Shown: one piece after another, positions 1 through 4,241 of the stretch | Layout of the letters: each line of letters begins with the position of its first letter | How positions within the stretch are numbered: position 1 is the first letter of the stretch | From: a virus | Taxonomy: Duplodnaviria; Heunggongvirae; Uroviricota; Caudoviricetes | Virus record (IMG/VR): IMGVR_UViG_2778261564_000010 | Reading direction: 5' to 3' (one strand) | DNA: 4,241 nt | Notes under the pieces: model-generated | The model's database searches: none | Seen by the model: the letters and a program-made list of their open reading frames with translations, nothing else | What the model was told of the DNA's origin: nothing | Position numbers and translations under genes: made by a program

Positions 1-800
1 TATTTCTCATTTACCCAGCGGCGACGTTTAGGTCGTTTCATGAAGGATTCCGGAGACTCCGGATCAACGGCAATGCTGACCACCGTCTTTTCCTGTGGTG
101 GGTTCTGTTGCTGGTGGGTGTGAGGCGGTAGCGCAATATTTTTTGTGCGCTGCTTCAGTATGCTGGTGGCGGTCTGCTCTCCCGGCACGATGTCGCTTTC
201 ACGGTACATTGAGCGGATTTTTTCCGCACGCCCCCCCAGCGAACGACGTAATACCGCTTCCGGTAGCGCGTCCGCCACCTGATTGCGGACCGCCCACCAG
301 GATAATTCAGCCAAAGATAATTCACGCTCCTGCGTACCGCTTATTGCGTGACCGATGACGTCAATCATCCATGCTGACAGGTTTTGATGAGCAAGTTGCT
401 CGAGTGATTCGGATGTCTGGTCACGCAGCTGGTTGTCGCAGTGCCAGCACAACACCATTGCGCCGGTACCATAACGGTGAATGACAGTTTCGCTGTGATG
501 ATAATCGCCGTGTGGCCACTGGCAGGATTTAATATGGCGCAACAGCCAGTCAGACAATGCACCAGCACCACCAGCAGCACGAATCACCCGTGCGTTACTG
601 AAAAACGGCAGCAATGTTTTGTCTTCCACCAGCGGCTGGCGAACGGCAGGAACGACCCCGGACGGCAGATTACGCATGCTTTTCGGTTCAGGCTCCACCA
701 GCACTCTAGGGTTATGAAATACTTGCATGGATTCACGACCCGGCCTAAGGACCACCAGCCCGAGTTCCGGTACCAGAACAGGTCGAAGTAATATCCGCAC
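1..800 (-). CDS. Prophage protein, DUF968/YdfU-like (N-terminal part; 3' end lies beyond window start)
   Basis: Hand translation of the minus strand gives an uninterrupted frame from GTG 800-798 to position 1 with no stop (VRILLRPVLVPELGL...MRNLPSGVV...CQWPHGDYHH...CWHCDNQL...KRPKRRRWVNEK). GGAGG lies 4 nt upstream of the GTG, immediately after the stop of the upstream ORF. Alternative in-frame starts are ATG 872, 728 and 677. It is missing from the ORF track because it has no in-window stop. Family assignment is from memory of YdfU-like proteins next to hokD in Qin-type prophages and is unverified. Confidence 0.6.
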   Translation of the reverse strand, partial: MRILLRPVLVPELGLVVLRPGRESMQVFHNPRVLVEPEPKSMRNLPSGVVPAVRQPLVEDKTLLPFFSNARVIRAAGGAGALSDWLLRHIKSCQWPHGDYHHSETVIHRYGTGAMVLCWHCDNQLRDQTSESLEQLAHQNLSAWMIDVIGHAISGTQERELSLAELSWWAVRNQVADALPEAVLRRSLGGRAEKIRSMYRESDIVPGEQTATSILKQRTKNIALPPHTHQQQNPPQEKTVVSIAVDPESPESFMKRPKRRRWVNEK

Positions 801-801
801 G

Positions 802-1074
802 TTACCTCCAGATGCGTTGCTGGAATGTGCGGGATGGGCGCGGTGAGCGTTCGGAATAAGGGAGCCTGACATAGATTATCCAGTGACGATAATCGAGGCT
901 GAGGGCTTTCTTAATCTCGTATCCGCGTCTGCGGTAGTTATGAATTAGCCATTCGGCCTGTTCTTCAGTACATGGTGGGTGTTGGTACCAGTCGGTTTTA
1001 AATGCGTGTGAACGCCGCCCATGCCGGATGGCAAGGTCGGTATCAGAATTGTGAAATTTGGTTTTGTGCGCCAT
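802..1074 (-). CDS. Hypothetical prophage protein (90 aa)
   Basis: ATG-initiated ORF from the track (MAHKTKFHNSDTDLAIRHGRRSHAFKTDWYQHPPCTEEQAEWLIHNYRRRGYEIKK...). Its TAA stop at 802-804 lies 1 nt from the GTG start of the downstream long ORF, an operon-like junction. Its own SD is weak (GAGAAAAC) and the C-terminal 15 residues are R/P/S-rich, so the true extent is uncertain. Confidence 0.45.
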   Translation of the reverse strand: MAHKTKFHNSDTDLAIRHGRRSHAFKTDWYQHPPCTEEQAEWLIHNYRRRGYEIKKALSLDYRHWIIYVRLPYSERSPRPSRTFQQRIWR

Positions 1075-1140
1075 CTGTTTTCTCTACTGGCGCAGCAGGT
1101 GTCAGGTGTTCAGGCTGACGTGCGAATTGTAAACCAGAAT

Positions 1141-1173
1141 GCCAGGAAAAAACAAAACCCGCCGAAGCGGGTT
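1141..1173 (-). terminator. Rho-independent terminator at the 3' end of the hok transcript
   Basis: On the minus strand: 7-bp GC-rich stem (AACCCGC / GCGGGTT) with a UUCG tetraloop, followed directly by TTGTTTTTTCC. Confidence 0.6.
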
Positions 1174-1177
1174 AAGT

Positions 1178-1192
1178 GCGGGTGCGTTGAGG
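1178..1192 (-). promoter_or_regulatory. hok mRNA 3' fold-back element (fbi-like), complementary to the 5' end of the transcript
   Basis: Minus-strand 5'-CCTCAACGCACCCGC-3' is the near-perfect complement (one bulge) of minus-strand 5'-GCGGGTGCTTGAGG-3' at 1568-1555. This long-range 5'/3' pairing is the known hallmark of hok mRNAs. Confidence 0.5.
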
Positions 1193-1241
1193 ATGCCTGA
1201 CTCATCAGAGGTGGCGAGGGATTTCCCCCTCGCCTGGTCTC

Positions 1242-1397
1242 TTACTCCTCAGGTTCGTAAGCTGTGAAGACAGCGACCTCCGTCTGGCCGGTTCGGATTC
1301 GTACCTCGCAGAGGTCTTTCCTCGTTACCAGTGCCGTCACTATGACGGTTAAACAGATGACGATCAGGGCGATTAACATCGCCTTTTGCTGCTTCAT
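1242..1397 (-). CDS. hok: Hok/Gef-family type I toxin (HokD/RelF-like), 51 aa
   Basis: Hand translation: MKQQKAMLIALIVICLTVIVTALVTRKDLCEVRIRTGQTEVAVFTAYEPEE, ATG 1397 to TAA 1242-1244. SD AAGGAG lies 8 nt upstream. The protein matches my memory of E. coli HokD (RelF) and has the hydrophobic N-terminal helix and conserved Cys of the family. It is absent from the ORF track only because it is shorter than the track cutoff. Confidence 0.9.
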   Translation of the reverse strand: MKQQKAMLIALIVICLTVIVTALVTRKDLCEVRIRTGQTEVAVFTAYEPEE

Positions 1398-1453
1398 AGC
1401 CTGCTTCTCCTTGACCTTTCGGTCCGTAAGAGGCTAATCTCTATGTGTCGCAT
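1394..1453 (-). CDS. mok: mok-like leader ORF (19 codons), translationally coupled to hok
   Basis: ATG at 1453-1451 preceded by GAGG at the spacing seen in the plasmid R1 mok region. The frame ends in TGA overlapping the hok ATG as ATGA. Inferred by analogy with the R1 hok/mok/sok architecture; the ORF is much shorter than R1 mok. Confidence 0.4.
   Translation of the reverse strand: MRHIEISLLRTERSRRSRL
1411..1440 (+). promoter_or_regulatory. Candidate sok promoter
   Basis: Plus strand TTGACC (1411-1416), 17-18 nt spacer, then CTAATC/TAATCT (1434-1440). The -35 overlaps the complement of the hok SD, as in R1 (TTGCGC-N17-TATCCT, from memory). Confidence 0.45.
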
Positions 1454-1520
1454 AGATATGGCCTCAGATTAATGTTAAGCGTCTTGCAGGACGCGTAATG
1501 TTAACTGGGGCTTTTCTCTA
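1447..1520 (+). ncRNA. sok: Sok-like antisense RNA (approximate ends)
   Basis: Lies opposite the mok translation-initiation region. The 3' part contains a nested hairpin (GTTAA-GCGTC ... GACGC-...-TTAAC) followed by GGGGCTTTTCTCT, similar to what I recall of the R1 Sok 3' end. Boundaries are inferred, not measured. Confidence 0.4.
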
Positions 1521-1554
1521 TCTGCCTTTTGGTGTTCATGCCTGAGACAGATAG

Positions 1555-1601
1555 CCTCAAGCACCCGCAGTCATTCTACTTAACTAAGATTTCCCCGCAA
1601 A
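1555..1601 (-). promoter_or_regulatory. Candidate hok promoter and 5' tac-like element
   Basis: Minus strand TTGCGG (-35, plus 1596-1601), 16 nt spacer, TAGAAT (-10, plus 1574-1579), then GCGGGTGCTTGAGGCT (plus 1555-1568). The latter resembles the R1 hok mRNA 5' end GGCGCUUGAGGCU and is complementary to the 3' element at 1178-1192. Confidence 0.45.
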
Positions 1602-1655
1602 CCGTTTTTGTCCGGCACAGTAAATATCCAACTAAACCAATGGCGTTCGCTGTAT

Positions 1656-1835
1656 TTACCGCCAGTATTCAATGCACATGACCGCCATGAACACCCCTAA
1701 AAAAAGGGCATTTATATGTCCAAACATTAATATCAAAACATCAACTTTTTCCATATACCTTGCTGTGAAGATGATGGGCATACATGATGCGAACAACCAG
1801 AACGCAACAAACAAAAACTGCAATGCGTTTTTCAT
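1656..1835 (-). CDS. Possible small two-helix membrane protein (59 aa)
   Basis: Internal ATG at 1835 of the 1656..1874 track ORF (which begins at a GTG) is preceded by AGGGGGAATA. Translation is MKNALQFLFVAFWLFASCMPIIFTARYMEKVDVLILMFGHINALFLGVFMAVMCIEYWR, with two hydrophobic segments. The region is very AT-rich, so hydrophobic composition may be an artefact. Confidence 0.3.
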   Translation of the reverse strand: MKNALQFLFVAFWLFASCMPIIFTARYMEKVDVLILMFGHINALFLGVFMAVMCIEYWR

Positions 1836-2005
1836 TATTCCCCCTACAATCAATGTGCAATAACATTTAAACACACCTCAATTTAGCCGGACATATAAAT
1901 ATCTAAACCAGAAAAAATCACTTACATAGCGTTACAAACTCTTTAGTCTAAATATTCATCGTAAAACATTCCCCATACTTATCAGCCCGTTCTGCGCCAG
2001 GTAGC

Positions 2006-2293
2006 TCATTGCCTTATCTGGGAATCTGTAATCAGGTTTCCGGATGCTGGTGGATTTTCGCATTTTAGTTGTTCATAAAAGTGCACAGCTTTAACCAGTT
2101 CTTCTGATGTAACCGGGACTGGCGGGGCAGTGAATAAGGCCTGAATTTCATAGTTCGGCCTGTCGTTACAATCCTCTTTTTTCGGTACATATTTCCAGTC
2201 ACCAGACCACTACTTCCCCTGAAAGTCCGTAACGCCTTTTTTTCACGTAGCGATATCGCCATGCCACTGTTTTTGCTTGCCCCGCCGTTTCAT
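2006..2293 (-). pseudogene. Decayed reading frame with two in-frame stops
   Basis: One minus-strand frame starts at ATG 2293 (AGGAAGG upstream): MKRRGKQKQWHGDIAT-TGA(2243-2245)-KKGVTDFQGK-TAG(2210-2212)-WSGDWKYVPKKEDCNDRPNYEIQALFTAPPVPVTSEELVKAVHFYEQLKCENPPASGNLITDSQIRQ-TGA(2006-2008). The long 3' segment looks protein-like but has no usable start codon. Confidence 0.3.
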
Positions 2294-2317
2294 GCCCTTC
2301 CTGATAATTAACCTCGC

Positions 2318-2494
2318 TCATTCATCGCCCCACTCATCACAATATGCTTCGACCGGAGTTTTTCCTGCTTCATAATCATCACGCCATGCTTCAGCATCAG
2401 CAGCACTGCCACCACGTAACTCTGCATAGTCCATTAACAGTTCATGCCATTCTTCAAAACCGACGTTGTATTTAGTTGAACCAAAATCAGCCAT
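2318..2494 (-). CDS. Small acidic protein (58 aa), unknown function
   Basis: Hand translation: MADFGSTKYNVGFEEWHELLMDYAELRGGSAADAEAWRDDYEAGKTPVEAYCDEWGDE. The ATG overlaps the stop of the upstream gene (AAATGGCTGA) and GAGGAAG lies upstream. Absent from the track because it is under 60 aa. Weak motif similarity (KYN near the N-terminus, YCxxW near the C-terminus) to the 70-aa protein at 3767..3979. Confidence 0.5.
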   Translation of the reverse strand: MADFGSTKYNVGFEEWHELLMDYAELRGGSAADAEAWRDDYEAGKTPVEAYCDEWGDE

Positions 2495-2669
2495 TTTGTT
2501 CTTCCTCTTCGTCTTTTATTTCGTGATATGAGTAATTGCAGTAGTTAAAGAAAATATCTTTTGCTTCGTCATGTATTTCATCAGGCGTCGCATCATCATC
2601 CACTTCGAATTCATCCTCGAAATCTCCACCGGCTATTCCCGTTTCAATAATTATTTTAAACTTTCGCAT
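2487..2669 (-). CDS. Small, strongly acidic protein (60 aa), unknown function
   Basis: Track ORF with ATG start: MRKFKIIIETGIAGGDFEDEFEVDDDATPDEIHDEAKDIFFNYCNYSYHEIKDEEEEQNG, about one third D/E. The start codon sits 7 nt downstream of the H hairpin element. Coupled to the downstream 58-aa ORF. Confidence 0.6.
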   Translation of the reverse strand: MRKFKIIIETGIAGGDFEDEFEVDDDATPDEIHDEAKDIFFNYCNYSYHEIKDEEEEQNG

Positions 2670-2676
2670 TTAACTA

Positions 2677-2697
2677 CCGCCCTTTCGGGCGGCCTCC
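2677..2697 (-). promoter_or_regulatory. H element copy 2: GGAGG plus GC hairpin with GAAA loop, immediately 5' of a start codon
   Basis: Minus strand GGAGG-CCGCCC-GAAA-GGGCGG, then 7 nt, then ATG at 2669. The 23-nt core (plus strand taccgccctttcgggcggcctcc, 2675-2697) is identical to 3739-3761. Confidence 0.6.
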
Positions 2698-2724
2698 TGA
2701 TGTTCTGAGGGTGCAGAAATCCCT

Positions 2725-2781
2725 CCGGTTAAGGATTAAATTTTTAACAGAGCTAAATTTAATTATTCAGTTCTGGATTTT
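2725..2781 (-). promoter_or_regulatory. P' element: AT-rich conserved promoter/operator-like element with dyad symmetry
   Basis: Homologous to 3987-4048 (ccggttaaggattaaattttt...aatttaattattcag versus ccagttaaggattaaatttta...aacttaattattcag). Contains inverted repeat ATTAAATTT (2735-2743) / AAATTTAAT (2755-2763) with an 11-bp spacer. Overlaps the stop of the upstream 118-aa gene. Confidence 0.45.
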
Positions 2782-3119
2782 GTCGCCCTGCGTATCCGCG
2801 CTTTCGCGTTACGCTCAATCTGAATTAGCTTTTCTATATTTTTTCGCCTTTCCCGCTCCTCCTGACGCAAGAGCCTTACATCATCTGCCAGTCTGGTTTC
2901 TCTTTTCGCCACAGAGAGCATCCAGTCAAATGGTTCCACAACTGCACCGCAGATTTTACAGCGGACCTGACGCTCTTTTTCGTCAACCCGGACAGAGGCG
3001 TGATGACAATATGGTCTTTCCGATGGCTCATAAAGAAAATTAACCTGATTACGAGGGTCATCCTCTTTTACCGGAAATAAAACGATATTGCTTAACTCAT
3101 CCTCTGGTTTTATTTCCAT
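2763..3119 (-). CDS. Zinc-ribbon-like protein with basic helical C-terminus (118 aa), unknown function
   Basis: Track ORF 2763..3176 begins at a GTG immediately preceded by TGA. The preferred start is ATG 3119, preceded by AAGGAGAGGAGC. Translation: MEIKPEDELSNIVLFPVKEDDPRNQVNFLYEPSERPYCHHASVRVDEKERQVRCKICGAVVEPFDWMLSVAKRETRLADDVRLLRQEERERRKNIEKLIQIERNAKARIRRATKSRTE, with a C-H-H...C-x-x-C cluster followed by an Arg/Glu/Lys-rich tail. Confidence 0.65.
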   Translation of the reverse strand: MEIKPEDELSNIVLFPVKEDDPRNQVNFLYEPSERPYCHHASVRVDEKERQVRCKICGAVVEPFDWMLSVAKRETRLADDVRLLRQEERERRKNIEKLIQIERNAKARIRRATKSRTE

Positions 3120-3240
3120 GCTCCTCTCCTTTGATGCGAATGCCAGCGGTAATTGAAGCCTGATAGCTAATTTCACTCACAGTACCGCCTCCTGAAAATT
3201 TAATGAACAATTCAATACGTTCTTTGGTAATAGTGGTCAT
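3097..3240 (-). CDS. Small protein (47 aa), unknown function; overlaps the start of the downstream gene
   Basis: ATG 3240 preceded by AAGGAG at 6 nt, overlapping the TAA of the upstream gene. Translation: MTTITKERIELFIKFSGGGTVSEISYQASITAGIRIKGEEHGNKTRG. Ends at TGA 3097-3099, 23 nt past the ATG of the downstream gene in another frame. A diverged copy of this segment exists at 4051-4164. Confidence 0.4.
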   Translation of the reverse strand: MTTITKERIELFIKFSGGGTVSEISYQASITAGIRIKGEEHGNKTRG

Positions 3241-3250
3241 GTGTTACTCC

Positions 3251-3514
3251 TTAACCCGCAGTGCTTTCAACTGATGAGGGGAACAAAATCTTTTCATCAA
3301 ACCCTGCATTCATATCATGAACAGCAACACACCAATCCATCGACGAACGATTATCAAGAGCCTCCATGATTTCATCCATGCGGCGTAGGTCATACAGGTA
3401 AATGCTTTTATCGCCAATGGTGTAAAAGCCAATTTTTTTCGGTGATGGACAGCGCTCAAGAACTTCCTGTAATTCGTTCAACCATGCCCGTTCTTTTTTT
3501 GTCAAAGTTGCCAT
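3251..3514 (-). CDS. Hypothetical protein (87 aa)
   Basis: Track ORF 3251..3604 begins at a TTG. The preferred start is ATG 3514, preceded by AAGGAA, 1 nt after the stop of the upstream gene. Translation: MATLTKKERAWLNELQEVLERCPSPKKIGFYTIGDKSIYLYDLRRMDEIMEALDNRSSMDWCVAVHDMNAGFDEKILFPSSVESTAG. Confidence 0.65.
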   Translation of the reverse strand: MATLTKKERAWLNELQEVLERCPSPKKIGFYTIGDKSIYLYDLRRMDEIMEALDNRSSMDWCVAVHDMNAGFDEKILFPSSVESTAG

Positions 3515-3515
3515 A

Positions 3516-3734
3516 TCAGTTTTCCTTATACGGATTAATTTTATTGTGCAGTGTGTTGAATGACGCCCATACCACGTCGTTATACAATTCAGTAACTGGC
3601 TCAATTATTTTCCCGATTGCCCAGACAAAAATTAGAGGGGATATCGGTATCATCAATACGATAAACAGAATGAGAAACAAAAATTCTGTCGCCCTACTTT
3701 TTTGCGGATATTCTTTTCTGAATAATGTAGTCAT
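3516..3734 (-). CDS. Small single-pass membrane protein (72 aa), unknown function
   Basis: Track ORF with ATG start, 6 nt downstream of the H hairpin element. Translation: MTTLFRKEYPQKSRATEFLFLILFIVLMIPISPLIFVWAIGKIIEPVTELYNDVVWASFNTLHNKINPYKEN, with one hydrophobic helix at about residues 17-41 flanked by charged residues. The stop is adjacent to the start of the 87-aa gene. Confidence 0.6.
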   Translation of the reverse strand: MTTLFRKEYPQKSRATEFLFLILFIVLMIPISPLIFVWAIGKIIEPVTELYNDVVWASFNTLHNKINPYKEN

Positions 3735-3740
3735 TTCTTA

Positions 3741-3761
3741 CCGCCCTTTCGGGCGGCCTCC
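3741..3761 (-). promoter_or_regulatory. H element copy 1: GGAGG plus GC hairpin with GAAA loop, immediately 5' of a start codon
   Basis: Minus strand GGAGG-CCGCCC-GAAA-GGGCGG, then 6 nt (TAAGAA), then ATG at 3734. The 23-nt core is identical to copy 2 although the flanking genes are unrelated. Confidence 0.6.
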
Positions 3762-3766
3762 CGACA

Positions 3767-3979
3767 TTAATCGTTGTGGTAACTCATGGCTTCATTTGCA
3801 GCATCAACCGGATCAACCTCCCACCAGCAATAATTTGGTGCGTTTCCTTCAGGTGTCCACGGTTCCAATTCATTTTTTGCCACATTCTCGTCGCCAGTAA
3901 TTTTAAAAATCTGCTCAGAGAATTTTTTCACCCACTCGTTATATTTTTCAGTGTTAATAATTTTCTGTGTATTTGACAT
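3767..3979 (-). CDS. Small acidic protein (70 aa), unknown function
   Basis: Track ORF with ATG start preceded by GGAGGT at about 7 nt. Translation: MSNTQKIINTEKYNEWVKKFSEQIFKITGDENVAKNELEPWTPEGNAPNYCWWEVDPVDAANEAMSYHND. Lies immediately downstream of the P element. Confidence 0.65.
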   Translation of the reverse strand: MSNTQKIINTEKYNEWVKKFSEQIFKITGDENVAKNELEPWTPEGNAPNYCWWEVDPVDAANEAMSYHND

Positions 3980-3986
3980 AGATATA

Positions 3987-4048
3987 CCTCCAGTTAAGGA
4001 TTAAATTTTATTTACAGTGCTGAACTTAATTATTCAGATTTGGATTAT
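3987..4048 (-). promoter_or_regulatory. P element: AT-rich promoter/operator-like element upstream of the 70-aa gene
   Basis: Second copy of the roughly 60-bp conserved element (see 2725-2781). Ends in the GGAGG used as SD for the ATG at 3979. Contains TGTAAATAAAAT, a possible -10-like sequence. No transcription start can be called confidently. Confidence 0.4.
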
Positions 4049-4050
4049 GC

Positions 4051-4164
4051 TTTCTCTTCACGAAGTTCCGATTGTTAATTTGGCTCACAACAGCACCTTC
4101 TGAAAATTACCCTGATAGAAAGCCAGTACACGCTGCATAGCTTCGCTCTTCCGGCACTCGCTAC
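4051..4164 (-). other. Degenerate partial third copy of the cassette, truncated by the IS
   Basis: Minus-strand ...TAATTTTCAGAAGGTGCTGTTGTGAGCCAAATTAACAATCGG... aligns with the 3180-3215 region (...AAATTTTCAGGAGGCGGTACTGTGAGTGAAATTAGCTATCAGG...) but with frame-disrupting differences, and then joins directly to sequence resembling the last codons of the 118-aa gene. No intact ORF. Confidence 0.4.
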
Positions 4165-4241
4165 TGAACCGCCCCGGGAATCCTGGAGACTAAACTCCCT
4201 GAGAAAGAGGTAAACAGGATGACTAAAAATACACGTTTTTC
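4165..4241 (+). mobile_element. IS3-family insertion sequence, left end (IS629/IS1203-like), continues beyond window
   Basis: TGAACCGCCCCGGGAATCCTGGAGACTAAACTCCCTGAGAAAGAGGTAAACAGG followed by ATGACTAAAAATACACGTTTTTC matches my memory of the IS629/IS1203 left terminal repeat and orfA start. Unverified recall. Confidence 0.7.
4219..4241 (+). CDS. IS3-family transposase OrfA, first 7 codons only
   Basis: ATG at 4219 preceded by GAGG; translation MTKNTRF... Partial at the window edge. Confidence 0.65.

Follow-up and report, generated by a model that had tools for sequence, protein, structure and literature searches.

A frameshifted, nonsense-containing and 3'-deleted remnant of a phrog_660-family gene in a lambdoid prophage of the Escherichia coli type

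Introduction

The question raised by this locus is what became of a protein-like reading frame that appears to be interrupted by two in-frame stops within 11 codons, beside a run of A residues. The window, i.e., the whole stretch of 4,241 nucleotides analyzed here, belongs to an E. coli-type lambdoid prophage, with all genes on the minus strand, and its best full-length matches in complete E. coli genomes have 98.3% identity over positions 1-4167. The frame lies in the late-early ("nin-like") region of the prophage, between the replication genes and the block containing hokD, DUF968, rusA and Q. It is followed downstream by a hokD-type toxin gene, a 90-aa ORF and a DUF968 (ydfU-like) gene and is preceded by a series of short phage ORFs, among them DUF7167 and DUF4014.

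In a preliminary description of the frame (2006-2293, minus strand) three options were offered, namely a recently inactivated gene, a sequencing or assembly error around the homopolymer, or a frame relying on an unusual start. The best explanation, to which a probability of about 0.93 is assigned, is that positions 1956-2321 (minus strand) are the remains of a small phrog_660-family accessory gene that no longer functions. The option of an inactivated gene is thus upheld, but an unusual start is not, an error in the sequence is very unlikely, and the anatomy of start and TGA proposed upstream of the A-run was also wrong.

Reading frame and gene start

Inspection of the minus strand confirmed all coordinates of the frame as first described, including an ATG at 2293-2291, preceded by GGAAGGG, a TGA at 2245-2243 (codon 17 of the frame), a TAG at 2212-2210 (codon 28, 11 codons further on) and 67 sense codons at 2209-2009, which read WSGDWKYVPKKEDCNDRPNYEIQALFTAPPVPVTSEELVKAVHFYEQLKCENPPASGNLITDSQIRQ and are terminated by a TGA at 2008-2006. 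The A7 homopolymer was correctly placed next to the first TGA, but only six A's follow that triplet, since the run (2243-2237) includes the A of the TGA itself.

Regarding the 67 codons, which had been said to read like genuine protein, a search with the 67-aa segment supported this view, detecting 50 homologous proteins with E-values down to 1.4e-36. The alternatives that the stretch is open by chance, or that another frame is normally translated here, are ruled out, as these homologues read the same frame, the segment matches phrog_660, and the invariant residues of the family sit in that frame. No ORF of 30 aa or more was detected in the frame of the 67 codons in the ORF listing of the window; the 67 codons therefore have no conventional start of their own, and the listing lends no support to the idea that they rely on an unusual one.

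The true start (MSEVNYQEGHETAGQAKTVAWRYRYVKK...) is the ATG at 2321-2319, which is in a different frame from the ATG at 2293, overlaps the TGA (2318-2320) of the upstream 58-aa gene as ATGA, and is also the start of the intact homologues of phage vB_EcoM-606R7, E. coli RIVM_C037166, and E. coli 55989. The ATG at 2291-2293 and its Shine-Dalgarno-like GGAAGGG, which had been taken for the beginning of the gene, both sit within codons of the real gene (Q-E-G-H-E) in a different frame, the ATG being a fortuitous out-of-frame triplet within GGG-CAT-GAA. Similarly, the TGA at 2243-2245, first read as an in-frame stop, is not a nonsense codon; it straddles two codons of the real frame, GTG|AAA, read out of frame as G TGA AA, and the intact alleles have these bases as well.

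Nucleotide alignments revealed a run of six A's (A6) in all intact alleles (606R7, mEp460, 55989, and RIVM), A7 in the window and A8 in a sister allele. The A7 (2237-2243), at Lys27-Lys28, has one A in excess, equivalent to a +1 frameshift, and the frame downstream of the run is the ancestral one. The A7 is the actual lesion here, the +1 shift creating the apparent frame of ATG 2293 and TGA 2243. Translation from ATG 2321 would end after 40 codons at a TGA (2201-2199). This N-terminal 40-codon ORF (2199-2321) is still translationally coupled to the upstream gene and could give a short peptide. No promoter-like site was found within the span of the pseudogene, the sole one detected lying at 2349-2376 (plus strand) inside the upstream gene, no terminator-like site was found in 1400-2800, and no Rfam RNA family was detected in the region of the pseudogene, the only match being sok at 1395-1566, outside it.

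In contrast to the TGA, the TAG at 2210-2212 was rightly regarded as a stop. It is a true nonsense codon at ancestral codon 37, which is a sense codon in the intact alleles (CCG, CTG, ATG, CAG, GCG or TCG in open alleles), and close relatives have CAG or TGG at this codon, each one transition away from TAG. The frameshift falls in the KK of the WRYRYVKK motif and the TAG nine codons later, both positions being inside the family's most conserved block or immediately ahead of it. What looks like two in-frame stops beside a homopolymer can thus be made up of one frameshift and one nonsense codon.

Intact homologues and deletions at the 3' end

Comparison with relatives revealed intact homologues in phage vB_EcoM-606R7 (119 aa), phage mEp460 (155 aa), and E. 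coli 55989 (WP_001290001.1, 171 aa), and an open homologue in E. coli RIVM_C037166 (WP_001529162.1, 104 aa), all of them downstream of the same 58-aa gene. The full span of the pseudogene, from ancestral start to ancestral stop, is 1956-2321, as given both by PGAP annotation and by global alignment, end to end, to the 516-nt gene of 55989. The 55989 allele has the same position, start and ATGA overlap as the window copy, is identical to it at 323 of the 366 window bases in the global alignment and shares the conserved core WRYRYVKK..GDWKYVP.KEDCNDRPNYEIQALF; it differs in having A6, CCG at codon 37, the 90-nt and 61-nt segments that the window copy has lost, and a single open frame.

The first of these losses is a 90-nt in-frame deletion, which appears as gaps of 38 and 52 nt in the pairwise alignment to the 55989 gene and has its junction between two copies of the repeat GAnAATCCnCCAG (ENPP...DNPP in the full-length protein). 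Because of this repeat, the pairwise comparison with 55989 and the multiple alignment place the junction only to 2047-2064. The second is a 61-nt deletion with its junction at CGGAAAC (2036-2042), which in the pairwise alignment to 55989 puts the remainder of the gene out of frame; the alleles of PhiR42_1 and LD39-1 retain 57 of the 61 deleted bases, flanked by CGGCAAC...CGGAAAC. The lengths add up, with 516 + 1 - 90 - 61 = 366 = 2321 - 1956 + 1.

The TGA that ends the 67-codon frame (2006-2008) is a new stop resulting from the 61-nt deletion and is also the stop of the open 104-aa allele. The 67 codons (2009-2209) represent the conserved core and the first helix of the ancestral protein, plus an out-of-frame tail of 10 codons (30 nt), and the invariant columns W38...F62 of the family fall inside this interval. 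Further downstream, the ancestral C-terminus survives out of frame as PDKAMSYLAQNGLISMGNVLR (1956-2021), which corresponds in the alignments to LPEKAMDYLKRNGLISVEDVLR of the 55989 protein (171 aa) and includes the ancestral stop (1956-1958). The C-terminal third of the protein has therefore been removed or frame-shifted by the 90-nt and 61-nt deletions. The preliminary description had identified the A-run and the TAG but overlooked both deletions and the out-of-frame remnant extending to 1956.

Relative to the full-length 171-codon allele, the window copy thus has four lesions, namely an extra A (A7, +1), the TAG at codon 37, the 90-nt in-frame deletion, located between short direct repeats, and the 61-nt deletion, by which the last 21 codons are put out of frame. 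The deletions alone may perhaps have left function intact, since the open 104-aa allele of RIVM_C037166, together with its protein cluster P0002 (64 member sequences), has the same 3' deletions, including that of 61 nt, and the new stop at the position of 2006-2008. This allele is identical to the window copy at 346 of 366 aligned positions and differs in having A6 and CTG (Leu) in place of A7 and TAG, which leaves its frame open.

Regarding the hallmarks of a pseudogene, intact homologues are present at the orthologous position (606R7, 55989, and RIVM_C037166), frameshifts relative to them were detected (A7 vs. A6 at 2237-2243, and the 61-nt deletion near 2037), and the TAG at 2210-2212 is a premature stop in the homologous frame. 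The dead allele probably gives no product. The locus is already annotated in this way in RefSeq genomes with the identical allele, and in this respect it is ordinary and already known. PGAP has a CDS pseudogene of exactly 1956-2321, "hypothetical protein; frameshifted; internal stop," in NZ_CP098219.1 (NBY13_RS09480) and NZ_CP023142.1 (CA696_RS30675), and the label "frameshifted; internal stop" was found in five of the genomes examined, sister alleles included. The genomes with the PGAP pseudogene share with the window the identical 381 nt, the 58-aa and DUF7167 genes upstream and hokD further downstream, but lack the IS3-family insertion located about 1.8 kb upstream in the sense of the minus-strand genes.

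Distribution of alleles and age of the lesions

The distribution of alleles was derived from a search with the 381-nt locus and a scripted pattern scan of IMG/VR. The locus was detected in 1751 of 5426 complete E. coli genomes; 614 records from such genomes have the dead allele at an identity of at least 99%. A short A6 query across the run retrieved 666 records at the same level of identity. Queries of 46 and 47 nt across the A7 and A8 run matched nothing, probably because the low-complexity filter of BLAST masks the run and no 28-nt word is left, and do not speak for an absence of these alleles. An identical copy (381/381, with A7) is present in 13 complete E. coli genomes from dog, chicken, duck, human, cheese and wastewater in various countries, and three more complete genomes have a copy of the same length with one substitution. 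The 382-nt sister allele with A8 and TAG is far commoner, is present in three independent assemblies of CFT073 and was also found in the induced phages 640R1 and 813R8.

These counts bear on the option that the A7 of the window is a sequencing or assembly error and that the true run is A6. Homopolymers are error-prone in some sequencing technologies, and A6, A7, and A8 all occur among near-identical copies. Such an error is nevertheless very unlikely, given that the identical 381 nt, A7 included, recur in the 13 independent complete genomes of diverse host and geographic origin, that the three additional genomes differ by one substitution only and that the A8 allele is reproduced in the three CFT073 assemblies. 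Furthermore, a run of A6 would leave the gene dead through the TAG at 2210-2212 and the 61-nt deletion, and A6 with TAG is itself a frequent combination among the copies sampled.

In a set of 130 copies, comprising the IMG/VR contigs from the pattern scan and loci fetched earlier and hence neither random nor phylogenetically independent, A6 was combined with a sense codon 37 in 33 and with TAG in 40, A7 was combined with TAG in 14, and A8 was combined with TAG in 40 and with TGG in three. Expanded runs (A7 or A8) were never found with sense codons other than TGG among the 130 copies, and their confinement to alleles with TAG (or TGG) fits drift in run length in an already dead gene. Since A7 and A8 occur only on alleles with TAG, or with TGG in the three cases, we infer that the deletions and the TAG would be older than the expansion of the A-run.

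The three IMG/VR contigs with A8 and TGG form a class of their own, two of them retaining an otherwise intact 171-codon frame downstream; this class appears to represent either a recombinant or an inactivation separate from that by the TAG.

It is doubtful that the gene was inactivated recently, as had been suggested. The dead allele is widespread at 99% identity or more, and the TAG is common to the lineage of the window and that of PhiR42_1 and LD39-1, two lineages with an identity of only about 94% that are further distinguished by the 57-nt segment. Because the TAG is shared at this level of identity and the 61-nt deletion is shared with the open RIVM allele, either the lesions are of long standing or recombination between prophages has reshuffled them, and "recently inactivated" is therefore not the best description. 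Sister alleles have decayed further, by an extra stop, an IS-like insertion or second, compensating indels.

Three entries of public protein databases, P0001, P0008, and P0028, are chimeras from decayed copies in which the A8 frameshift is combined with a second indel that reopens the frame; their middle sections are out-of-frame junk, by which homology searches could be misled.

Possible recoding at the A-run

A further possibility is that the two frames are joined by recoding, either by a +1 ribosomal slip on AAA-AAA-A before AGG or by transcriptional slippage, and that a leaky TAG then allows low-level synthesis of a 104-aa protein. The site in the real frame, GTG AAA AAA AGG, would be suited to the former, as the Lys-tRNA can re-pair perfectly one base downstream and the rare, slowly decoded AGG favors +1 slips in E. 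coli; the polymorphic length of the A-run is also in keeping with this idea. Recoding is nonetheless extremely unlikely. The two-frame layout is not conserved, the intact homologues having A6 and a single frame, and A7 and A8 on the same background would need different shifts. The TAG comes as early as 8 codons after the run, and neither a suppressor nor a readthrough context is apparent; extra stops and indels pile up in sister alleles. A programmed frameshift or transcriptional slippage site was accordingly rejected, as neither the slippery run nor the two-frame layout is conserved and the downstream frame is closed by the TAG. A phase-variable contingency locus was rejected as well, since all 14 A7 alleles and 40 of the 43 A8 alleles also have the TAG and the tract is only 6-8 nt long.

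Protein family and predicted fold

The window copy, once conceptually repaired, gives a translation that matches phrog_660 (PHROGs v4, unknown function) with an E-value of 5.5e-27, and the intact homologues match it with values of 1e-42 to 4e-48. The family has the invariant core W..GDWKYVP.KEDCND.P.YEIQALF, preceded by WRYRYVKK. Regarding membership of phrog_660, the profile match was found, but an uninterrupted frame over the conserved core was not; the window copy is thus not an intact member and is also missing the C-terminal module common to intact members, phrog_26213 and phrog_250.

All database names of the homologues are "hypothetical protein." Searches of the ancestral protein family against Pfam, NCBIfam, and PADLOC gave no matches, a sequence search of the PDB gave only spurious matches to designed helical proteins, and a literature search on the family and the accession identifiers retrieved nothing. 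An AlphaFold2 model of the intact homologue P0025, of mediocre to moderate confidence (pLDDT 64.7, pTM 0.52), predicts that the ancestral protein consisted of a small beta-sheet core (a three-stranded sheet) followed by two helices. Foldseek searches of the PDB and BFVD with this model gave no match at E ≤ 0.001.

The C-terminal 35 residues of the intact homologues, a segment deleted in the window, have weak matches to phrog_250 and phrog_60, both entered in PHROGs as "unknown function" and both of which we take to be Ea22-type families. Assignment to the Ea22-like (Ead) lambdoid phage proteins was considered and rejected for want of a Pfam or NCBIfam match.

Loss of the gene and its significance

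The gene is dispensable, because inducible phages carry the dead allele. That this allele is very common fits hitch-hiking in a successful prophage; a residual or DNA-level role would also be compatible with it. It could also be that loss of the gene was selected, the protein being costly, toxic or sensed by host defense in lysogens or during infection, so that independent knock-outs, by the TAG, by expansion of the A-run or by deletion, arose repeatedly and spread through E. coli prophages. The dead alleles account for 97 of the 130 copies sampled, they are carried by inducible phages, and at least two different first hits were detected, i.e., TAG on an A6 allele and A8 on a TGG allele with the downstream frame otherwise intact in two of three copies. 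We consider selected loss unlikely, however, as the sample is not random and not phylogenetically independent, hitch-hiking of a single prophage lineage explains the counts equally well, and open alleles of three architectures are also common. Information on the function of the protein is also absent from the Pfam, NCBIfam, PADLOC, PDB, and Foldseek searches. If selected loss were nevertheless true, the intact phrog_660 protein would be a candidate defense trigger or toxic accessory protein.

Read as a pseudogene, the locus has little biological weight, as it adds one decayed accessory gene to a prophage that is mosaic, partly degraded and host to an IS insertion. Regarding annotation, a single pseudogene with ATG 2321 as its start is the appropriate call for 1956-2321, and the small ORFs sometimes deposited separately are frameshift artefacts, including out-of-frame products of 40, 65, and 85 aa and the "re-opened" P0001 and P0028.

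Neighboring features of the prophage

Downstream of the pseudogene, a complete type I toxin-antitoxin system of the hok/sok type was detected at 1242-1566, comprising a 51-aa HokD-like toxin (1242-1397, minus strand; phrog_251) and the sok RNA (RF01794; 1395-1566; 106.7 bits). The last ~90 bases of the window (about 4155-4241) are the end of an IS3-family element, which interrupts a DUF977 gene that is uninterrupted in relatives (e.g., 7085-7507 of L001). The terminal sequence of this element, TGAACCGCCCCGGGAATCCTGGAGAC, and the beginning of its ORF, MTKNTRF..., presumably resemble those of IS629/IS1203. An exact 42-nt pattern across the junction of prophage and IS was not found in species-representative genomes.

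The interval from about 1570 to 1955 is AT-rich and is left unannotated by PGAP in near-identical genomes. It includes a 72-aa, very hydrophobic ORF (1656-1874, minus strand), for which neither Pfam nor PHROGs gave a match, and a plus-strand ORF named "hornerin" in one phage record, which looks like an annotation artefact.

Upstream of the pseudogene, the 58-aa gene (2318-2494, minus strand) covers no more than positions 76-137 of the phrog_519 profile (143 positions) and may be a shortened module, although its conservation is wide and PGAP annotates it as intact. The 118-aa ORF at 2763-3119 (minus strand; phrog_1621) has a sub-threshold match to the zinc-ribbon PF08271 (21.6 bits vs. a cutoff of 29), and its Cys/His pairs suggest a small zinc-binding protein.

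Two linker modules are repeated between the small minus-strand genes, both of them intergenic. One is a 26-nt linker of a hairpin plus Shine-Dalgarno sequence, GGAGGCCGCCCGAAAGGGCGGTA (minus strand), with copies at 2675-2700 and 3739-3764 that are 96% identical; the other is an AT-rich linker of about 70 nt with copies at 2715-2782 and 3980-4049 that are 81-90% identical. These repeats may be recombination "boundary" sequences of the mosaic region, and the same hairpin motif precedes the mEp460 homologue.
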